The notes: generated from the letters alone by a model not told the origin. A stretch of 63,466 nt of DNA from Candidatus Parcubacteria bacterium (GCA_963766795.1 CAVYBN010000006.1:1-63466), one strand, 5' to 3'. Positions 60,689 through 60,835 are shown, counted from the first letter of the stretch. A program made the numbers and translations.

Positions 60689-60835
60689 TGCACCGTGGCT
60701 CATGGCATCCTGCCTTCGAAAGAATGGCCTTGGTCAGACTGCCCGGTGCAGATATGTGGGACATACGTAACCTTGGTTCAATAGAATGTTGCCCTCAATC
60801 GAGTGGCTTAAGATAAAGGGATACACAGGATATGT
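60689..60835 (+). ncRNA. Bridge RNA (target-binding and donor-binding loops) of the IS110 element
   Basis: Two analogous loops, each with an internal GCC..TGGC hairpin flanked by segments matching the target site (60701-60711, 60729-60737) and the donor junction (60781-60789, 60808-60818). Exact RNA ends unknown. Confidence 0.8.

Follow-up and report, generated by a model that had tools for sequence, protein, structure and literature searches.

IS110-family insertion sequences (ISs) choose their targets with a bridge RNA, and the rules have been set out for IS621. There the 5' guide is the sense of the left target plus the core, and the 3' guide is the complement of the core plus the right target (PMC11208160). 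The non-coding region (NCR) that holds the guides is placed in two ways. In the IS110 type the NCR precedes tnp, and its 5' guide corresponds to the top (tnp-sense) strand of the left flank; in the IS1111 type it lies downstream and the top-strand complement comes first. Targets described so far for bridge RNAs and seekRNAs are repetitive extragenic palindromic (REP) sequences, attC sites, transposon ends and short intergenic sites. Here we describe an IS110-family element from Candidatus Parcubacteria bacterium (GCA_963766795.1, CAVYBN010000006.1:1-63466; this whole stretch of 63,466 nt is called the window, and coordinates count from its first letter). Very probably the element belongs to an RNA-guided IS110 clade that is specialised on the W-H-P-D codons of large serine recombinase (LSR) genes and has inserted there repeatedly and independently, between Pro and Asp.

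The insertion is easily read. On the minus strand the layout is ..GCA TGG CAC C|CT|..IS..|CT|GAT AGG CTC.., and the same CT-GAY junction is found in all related copies. The 916-kb genome holds one copy of the IS, the one in the window. Its left end encodes a candidate bridge RNA with two internal loops, of which the first would bind the target. Plus-strand positions 60701-60711 are CATGGCATCCT, with TGGCATC at 60703-60709 followed by CT at 60710-60711, and positions 60732-60737 are GGTCAG, whose reverse complement is CTGACC. These two guides face each other across one internal loop, in the fold and in a 10-sequence consensus alike, with GCACCG.GGC/GCCCGGUGC and an inner hairpin closing the loop. 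A preliminary description of this DNA had decoded the loop at 60701-60737 as TGGCATC-CT-GACC, against an actual minus-strand site of TGGCACC-CT-GATA (W-H-P|D-R codons), and had listed the three differences as two synonymous wobbles and one C/A change. We read both in the same way. At position 6 a guide U lies opposite the G that pairs with top-strand C, which makes a U.G wobble, and at position 12 a guide G lies opposite T, which makes a G.T wobble. At position 13 a guide G lies opposite A, a mismatch. The left guide has 10 of 11 Watson-Crick pairs and one wobble, the right guide four Watson-Crick pairs, one wobble and the mismatch. The target strictly required by IS621 is 11 nt long (7 + 2 + 2; PMC11208160), so the mismatch at position 13 falls outside it and a single U.G wobble is left within that count. 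The commonest natural target of IS621 itself forms an rG:dT pair with the guide, and mismatches of natural guides number 0-2 (PMC11208160).

The match is not due to chance. The second loop fits the element's own ends and covaries with the tip. This loop consists of AUAGAAUGU and GAUAAAG(GG), and it matches the minus-strand ends of the element (CATAGAATGT-CT-TTAT). The sequence CCCTTTATCTTAA matches the right-end junction ..CC-CT-TTATgTTAA, and the part GAUAAAGGG of the right donor guide is the complement of CC-CT-TTAT. The left-end tip and the donor guide covary in three states, ACATTC/AAUGU, ACTTTC/AAAGU and ACGTTC/AACG. The GG beside the right donor guide recalls the handshake guide, a concept introduced elsewhere (PMC11208158). 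The 237 nt from the left tip to the ATG fold as two modules of stem, internal loop and hairpin. For the candidate RNA gene at 60680-60870 the minimum free energy is -72.1 kcal/mol (z = -2.9), and in the 10-homologue consensus double changes preserve the pairing at 26 of the 48 pairs. A search of Rfam gave no match to a bridge-RNA family; its sole match within 59.2-62.8 kb is a tRNA.

Table 1. Features of the element and of the interrupted recombinase module in the window.
Feature	Coordinates	Strand	Remarks
IS110-family element	60653..62073	+	1421 nt, one core copy included; junctions read in sequence
Left core dinucleotide	60651..60652	-	CT on minus strand (AG on plus), then GAT AGG CTC (D-R-L) on minus strand
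Right core dinucleotide	62072..62073	-	CT on minus strand (AG on plus); TGG CAC C (W-H-P) before it on minus strand
Transposase / bridge recombinase	60890..61969	+	359 aa; Pfam DEDD_Tnp_IS110 and Transposase_20
-35-like TTAACA in right end	62063..62068	+	Read from sequence
Candidate bridge RNA gene in left end	60680..60870	+	5' stem, target-binding loop module, donor-binding loop module
Left target guide CAUGGCAUC and core-binding CU	60701..60711	+	Sense of minus-strand target ..CATGGCACC-CT
Right target guide GGUCAG	60732..60737	+	Complement of CT-GACC
Left donor guide AUAGAAUGU	60781..60789	+	Sense of minus-strand left end CATAGAATGT; covaries with element end
Right donor guide and handshake-like GG (UUAAGAUAAAGGG)	60808..60820	+	Reverse complement CCCTTTATCTTAA
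LSR N-terminal fragment, M1..W-H-P	62074..62311	-	Open reading frame (ORF); catalytic Ser region (YTRKST); M..GILAWHP
LSR C-terminal fragment from D-R-L-A-R-N	59307..60650	-	DRLARNSVDGG..; Recombinase and Zn-ribbon domains
Inverted repeat, left arm	59418..59538	.	121 nt, 93% complementary; overlaps 3' end of recombinase ORF
Inverted repeat, right arm	62610..62730	.	121 nt; encloses recombinase module with left arm

Copies that carry the guide were collected by protein-based retrieval and then by pattern scans for the guides, three collection scans in all, covering public genomes and metagenomes. Retrieval by protein gave two relatives, 67-70% identical, in Yonathbacteria and Niyogibacteria, and both sit in ILAWHP|DRLARNS. 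Contigs of one genome per species gave 10 IS copies in a first scan and nine more in a second, in which positions 4 and 6 of the left guide were left free. The metagenome scan gave 120 stretches, from which those with the IS tip AC-N-TTCTATG were kept. The proposal that this IS preys on the WHPDRL motif of recombinase genes is supported by the tabulated sites of the homologues, and the outcome named as its refutation, same-guide homologues at unrelated sites, is not what they show. Among same-guide copies with an informative left-end flank, 78 of 87 lie at W-(H/N)-P|D-R-L-x-R-N of serine recombinase genes, with D-R-L-(A/G/S)-R-N directly after the core. Counted by distinct 44-nt flanks, D-R-L-x-R-N follows in 62 of 71 (87%). 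The opposite junction, wherever it is in hand, reads ..(I/L)(L/I)(A/S)W(H/N)P, and the insertion is always antisense to the recombinase gene. Many alleles are occupied, near-identical copies sit in diverged alleles, and the hosts span at least 10 named lineages of the candidate phyla radiation (CPR).

Some matches were set aside. The first two-guide pattern search also returned 11 proteobacterial contigs and one from Anaerolineales, discarded as conserved coding sequence without IS ends, and about 27 metagenome matches with unrelated flanks such as CACATAAACT../AGATTCTATGCAGT were removed by the requirement for the AC-N-TTCTATG tip. Transposases of the phylum at 37% identity (loci L158 and L159) come with different RNAs and flanks and are uninformative on this guide. 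None of 2.9 million viral contigs contains the IS, and no more than five contain the intact motif.

A single ancestral insertion is excluded. Some copies are 100% identical over their first 120 nt and yet occupy alleles with 9-18 differences in 45 flank bases (L018/L033; one clone in four alleles, L041, L050, L059 and L069; L096/L146), and the changes between such flanks are almost entirely synonymous. Identical left ends in diverged alleles mean that these insertions are independent and recent, and they contradict a strict co-divergence of IS and recombinase flanks. One Kaiserbacteria metagenome-assembled genome has two copies with different flanks and alleles (L162, L167).

What does the guide face in alleles that are still intact? 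Uninterrupted motif sites number 70 and occur in 56 of 401 sampled genomes of the phylum, a control pattern having no matches, and the IS was found in four of these 401. The His codon of the 70 sites is CAC in 40 and CAT in 30, the Asp codon GAC in 38 and GAT in 32, the base after it C in 37 and A in 33, and the Pro codon CCC in 26, CCT in 25, CCA in 11 and CCG in eight. Four sites match all 13 guide positions. The guide base at the third position of the His codon is U, which pairs with bottom-strand A or G, and that at the third position of the Asp codon is G, which pairs with top-strand C or T. No copy found departs from the left target guide, even with positions 4 and 6 free in the search. 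The right target guide GGUCAGAC (GGUCAG) is present in 52 of 55 distinct target loops, and the inner hairpin that it encloses is hypervariable. At L116 the right target guide is GAUCAG, a compensatory change that fits the GATC of its own site. Across the clade the transposases are 55-70% identical while the target guides stay unchanged. ISEc11 and ISXne4 are 72% identical, yet their targets differ (PMC11187229). Because U and G at the synonymous positions are wobble-capable and the guide is invariant across the clade, it would appear to be a generalist for all CAY/GAY alleles, not the relic of one. This bears on the suggestion, made in the preliminary description, that the guide was tuned on a different allele. 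A perfect allele, TGGCATC-CT-GACC, does exist, both occupied (L017, where the site matches the guide at 13 of 13 positions) and intact (the four sites above). But the guide is fixed across the whole clade, and the suggestion needs refining on this point. The exact string TGGCATCCTGAC was searched for in this genome and is absent from it. Two intact paralogues in the genome read TGGCACCCCGAC and TGGCATCCGGAC; their Pro codons are CCC and CCG, without the core T. We state the target as TGGCAYCCTGAY, its degenerate form, with 32 variants, as TGGCAYCCNGAYM, and the predicted empty site as TGGCACCCTGATAGG.

The real discriminator among alleles is the third base of the Pro codon, that is, the core T. 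CCT is found at 35 of 46 occupied sites versus 25 of 70 intact ones (odds ratio 5.7, p = 2.5e-5), and a near-invariant core T is also on record (PMC11208158). Occupied and intact sites come from different collections, and comparisons of allele preference other than that for CCT are weak.

How might insertion proceed? Alongside the observed anatomy, complementarity, covariation, recurrent independent insertion and preference for CT, the recombination chemistry is presumably that of IS621. The 5' guide (CAUGGCAUC-CU) would pair with one DNA strand of TGGCAYC-CT and the 3' guide (GGUCAG) with the other strand of CT-GAY(C), and the second loop would pair likewise with the joined element ends. The DEDD/Ser recombinase would exchange strands at the CT core, and this exchange would put the element between the Pro and Asp codons of W-H-P-D-R-L-A-R-N, antisense to the gene. 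With U against bottom-strand R and G against top-strand Y, wobble would cover CAT/CAC and GAT/GAC. For canonical insertion the Pro codon would have to end in T. What the IS gains may be a landing site that is safe, travels horizontally and is constrained in its mutation.

Several observations weigh against this reading. Nine of the 71 distinct flanks are not of recombinase genes, eight of the nine beginning CT-GA, and target specificity is high but not absolute. Occupied sites show no enrichment for a perfect GACC right target (10 of 62, versus 11 of 25 intact CCT alleles, the two sets being from different collections). Intact genes show no depletion of CCT at the Pro codon (36%, versus 29% GCT at the Ala codon), and the notion that the prey evades the IS was dropped on that account. 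A phmmer search of the transposase against PDB sequences gave nothing at E <= 1e-3, and its apparent homology to IS621 is carried by the Pfam domains only. Lastly, 11 of 46 right-end junctions hold one extra base, W-(H/N)-CCC- or -CCA-TTTATG and not -CC-TTTATG, which is not predicted by conservative exchange at a 2-nt core.

The sites outside recombinase genes are instructive. L135 (CATTGCATC-CT-GACC) and L171 (CATGGCGTC-CT) both resemble the left guide, and such resemblance fits base-pairing as the determinant. Half-match events are reported for IS621, and the off-target pattern here is compatible with them. In L115/L121 only one flank is W-H-P and the opposite flank is unrelated DNA, a sign of rearrangement at the IS. 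A separate observation concerns Parcubacteria GW2011_GWC2_48_17 (LCPL01; L164-L166, L171, L172), which has at least three copies of the IS, each of them at a contig end and in a non-recombinase site. Two of its flanks share CT-GAGCGAAG(A/T)CG, and these copies may represent a local expansion onto a near-cognate repeat.

The extra base deserves a closer look. It is found at L022, L043, L053, L058, L072, L075, L082, L097, L106, L121 and L146, and in these copies the opposite junction is canonical without exception. One right-end lineage has it in all of its eight copies, and in a sub-lineage of these the right donor guide is GAUAAAUGG, the exact complement of the CCA-TTTAT junction. For L058 versus L145 a base brought along by the IS is excluded, since their 238-nt left ends are identical and their junction types differ. 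Pre-existing +1 alleles are excluded by their rarity, one in 185,579 genomes, and other models (top-strand cuts 9|10, bottom-strand cuts 7|8 or elsewhere, shifted registers, slippage in the C run) do not fit all the data. What if alleles without the core T (Pro CCC/CCA) are entered in a slipped register? In this hypothetical scenario the target strand would be shifted by one register in its pairing with the GGG (or GGU) of the right donor guide/handshake, and the product would gain one T (LT-C-N-T-RD, between left target and right donor). A later canonical excision from the +1 junction would leave a +1 frameshift and kill the recombinase permanently. At L185 (366-393, CAZSLY010000099.1) the recombinase gene is uninterrupted but has a +1 frameshift at the very position of the IS site (TGGCATCC-CT-GACC). 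This allele reads TGG CAT CC-CT-GAC CGT TTG, is the sole uninterrupted +1 allele in the genomes just mentioned, and looks like the scar expected from such an excision. Taken together, the clade might be a dedicated hyperparasite of LSR modules whose RNA acts as a 'degenerate-codon probe', with slipped-register insertion at non-T alleles and frameshift scars. As a whole this is a tentative picture that we consider doubtful. If true, the slipped-register outcome would be non-conservative, new to bridge recombination and possibly RNA-templated. Extra-base junctions and the matching scar are natural data on bridge recombinases at non-T cores, with a bearing on the off-target products of engineered systems.

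Other explanations of the shared site have to be weighed. Site and orientation are common to all copies, and IS and recombinase are both confined to CPR-type genomes, as they would be if one ancient insertion had since been inherited or transferred as a composite of split gene and IS. The site would then be uninformative on targeting. We give this next to no credence, because the flanks around identical left ends differ at 20-40% of positions and flank identity correlates with IS identity at just 0.25. Flank differences are also overwhelmingly synonymous, with D-R-L-A-R-N-S-(V/I)-D-G-G kept, which argues for selection on intact genes until recently. Both gene halves in the window are still open, and uninterrupted alleles are 10-fold commoner than the IS (56 versus 4 of the 401 genomes). 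Perhaps the guide is cognate to some non-recombinase target and the window site is a near-cognate off-target, which would explain the three guide/site differences. The three non-Watson-Crick positions of the window copy agree with this, as do the nine non-recombinase flanks and the Parcubacteria genome with at least three such copies (L164-L166). Nevertheless it is very improbable. The recombinase motif is present in 87% of distinct flanks, the perfect-match sites are recombinase alleles (L017; four of the 70 intact), and the non-recombinase flanks are heterogeneous, having in common only CT-GA and partial matches to the left target.

A choice of site by protein or DNA structure (recombinase-bound DNA or a local hairpin), with the RNA match secondary, would suit a targeted gene whose product binds DNA, and for ISPpu10 a 2026 preprint reports that target recognition has a structural layer. 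However, insertion takes place inside the coding sequence about 240 bp from its 5' end, not at the repeat arms where the recombinase is expected to act. Moreover, off-target sites resemble the guides and not any recombinase context, and the compensatory guide change of L116 fits its own site. Such an explanation is scarcely probable. The IS might instead be a domesticated switch that keeps the recombinase off until precise excision, like the skin element in sigK. Excision between the CT copies of the 35 canonical junctions (of 46) would restore the W-H-P-D reading frame, IS110 excision is scarless (PMC11208160), and both gene halves are intact in the window. Yet the IS is in about 1% of genomes versus 14% for the recombinase, it moves between different alleles and to unrelated sites, and internally deleted copies of 809 and 1129 nt persist. 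Excision from the other 11 junctions would leave the gene out of frame, and L185 is one scar of this kind. Recent work reports copy-out, not cut-out, with the donor site staying occupied. A switch is therefore unlikely.

To return to the element as an RNA-guided insertion sequence of W-H-P-D codons, its anatomy is that of the IS110 family. The transposase matches DEDD_Tnp_IS110 at 7e-22 (78.3 bits, cut-off 29) and Transposase_20 at 1e-19 (71.1 bits, cut-off 21.3), with both profiles covered end to end. D14, E63, D105, D108 and S285/S286 could be located in it, and the parallel with D11/E60/D102/D105 of IS621 is one of spacing, not of alignment. The nearest plasmid-borne relatives are actinobacterial transposases annotated as 'IS110 family', at about 30% identity. 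Homologous elements are 1402-1509 nt long with ends identical in kind. A subterminal inverted repeat of 8 bp, TATGTTAA, lies 6 nt from one tip and 3 nt from the other; long terminal inverted repeats are absent from the element, and a CT core stands at both junctions. As far as sequence can tell, the element has the defining features of a bridge-RNA member of the family. When its ends are joined in a circle, the predicted junction reading ..GTTAACATAAAGACATTCTATG.., TTAACA (62063-62068) comes to lie 16 nt upstream of TAAATT (60664-60669) in the left end. L022 carries TTGACA in place of TTAACA. By analogy with IS621 this pair is a predicted junction promoter.

Some derivatives keep both ends and the bridge RNA without an intact transposase. 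They include L035 (809 nt) and five others of 1129 nt (L040, L090, L103, L126, L132), and in L134 the stretch between the two RNA loops is lost. Internally deleted derivatives of this kind are possible non-autonomous copies.

The prey gene has the make-up of a large serine recombinase, in which a Resolvase catalytic domain with the Ser nucleophile and the D-R-x-x-R pocket precedes the Recombinase and zinc-ribbon domains. Rejoined, the window LSR matches Resolvase (PF00239, residues 7-152), Recombinase (PF07508) and Zn_ribbon_recom (PF13408), hits the PHROG 95 integrase at 5e-74, and aligns across the junction with the catalytic domain of the solved serine recombinase 3G13. The split falls between the N-terminal 79 residues, which bear the Ser, and D-R-L-x-R plus the DNA-binding domains. 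Because the catalytic domain is split, the recombinase of the invaded module should be dead while the IS is present, unless the IS excises. A side observation is that an in-frame ATG, two codons ahead of D-R-L, comes from the left tip of the IS (60650-60658, minus strand, ATG TCT GAT), so that the C-terminal fragment is provided with a start codon (ORF 59307-60656); relatives with the ACTTTC tip are without this ATG.

Inverted repeats enclose the recombinase gene elsewhere too. Paralogous LSR genes of this genome (contig C1, 26619-26738/28392-28512; contig C16, 24138-24238/25878-25997) have the same arms, 81-85% identical and spaced by about 1.9 kb, and the interrupted genes of L022, L057 and L074 are flanked by arms of 97-148 nt. 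Overall the arms are about 100-150 nt long and about 1.7-1.9 kb apart, and the arm away from the ORF end encodes the same peptide as the other. For at least 20 of the 70 intact sites the contig begins no more than 1.8 kb away, which is what repeated DNA would lead one to expect. The prey would therefore seem to be a compact LSR module of about 1.9 kb bounded by inverted repeats, either an IS-like or a self-inverting segment; it could not be matched to a described family. Attachment of the module at tRNA genes was considered and rejected, since only the window copy adjoins one (tRNA-Gln) and the two paralogues do not. These uninterrupted paralogues (C1 27637-28074; C16 24540-24980) stop early, at 336 and 255 aa versus about 490, and may be decaying copies even without the IS. 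Directly outside the right repeat arm lies a DDE_Tnp_1 (IS4/IS5-like) transposase gene (62749-63466), cut by the contig end. At 58627-59205, upstream of tRNA-Gln, are two small overlapping-to-adjacent ORFs (97 and 93 aa), a putative antitoxin/toxin pair by size and arrangement.

Searches of literature outside subscription journals found no report of an IS110/IS1111 element aimed at serine recombinase coding sequence, and none of IS110/IS1111 elements in CPR bacteria. The target type differs from those described in that a whole clade is aimed at catalytic-motif codons, with guides constant down to about 55% transposase identity. Compared with known IS110 elements, the differences are a target class made of a codon string, a wobble-degenerate guide, and a reversed polarity combined with an upstream RNA. 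RNA-guided transposons can specialise on protein-constrained sequence, as inteins and homing endonucleases do. Wobble-capable guide bases widen the reach of a natural guide over synonymous variants, a design rule that could be used for programmable bridge recombinases. An IS of a very small CPR genome can maintain itself by choosing nothing but other selfish DNA to land in.

How does the element compare with the systems it most resembles? With the IS621/IS110 bridge recombinases (PMC11208160, PMC11208158) it shares a recombinase of RuvC-like DEDD plus Tnp(Ser) type and a non-coding RNA of about 190 nt in the left end, upstream of the gene. Also alike are the two internal loops, in each of which the 5' guide (9-11 nt with the core counted) is longer than the 3' guide, the CT core, the GG beside the right donor guide (here a putative handshake guide) and a natural target tolerated through a wobble of the G.T type. 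In contrast, the target here is not a REP or intergenic repeat but the catalytic-motif codons of another recombinase gene. In the right flank and the left end it is the transposase-sense strand that the 5' guides complement, a polarity opposite to that of IS621 by its description. The core reads AG on the transposase-sense strand, whereas in IS621 the right end lies 5' of the CT core on the bridge-RNA sense strand. The seekRNA elements of the IS1111 kind (the IS1111-attC group ISKpn4 and ISPst6; IS4321/IS5075 in Tn21 terminal repeats; PMC11187229) are likewise RNA-guided DEDD transposases that sit in a conserved feature of another mobile element and travel with it. They also have the 'top-strand complement first' guide order (PMC11187229) and a short subterminal inverted repeat. 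They differ in that the guide RNA is downstream of the transposase gene, the subterminal repeat is 11-13 bp and the prey feature is a recombination site or terminal repeat, not a codon string in a recombinase ORF. Subgroup features are thus mixed in the present element, with an NCR upstream (IS110 type), guide polarity of the IS1111 kind and an 8-bp subterminal repeat.

Two further comparisons reach beyond the family. The transposons Tn5053/Tn402, known as 'res hunters', have also specialised on serine-recombinase systems that belong to other mobile elements. Their insertion, near res, depends on resolvase protein bound at that site, whereas here the RNA would read the DNA of the recombinase gene itself. 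Inteins and the sites of homing endonucleases and group II introns provide the other parallel, as selfish inserts aimed at protein-constrained codons with synonymous variation tolerated. In both cases the target codons are fixed at the protein level. However, inteins and homing introns splice out and the host protein stays functional, whereas this IS disrupts its gene, and its degeneracy would come through RNA wobble, not through relaxed protein-DNA contacts.
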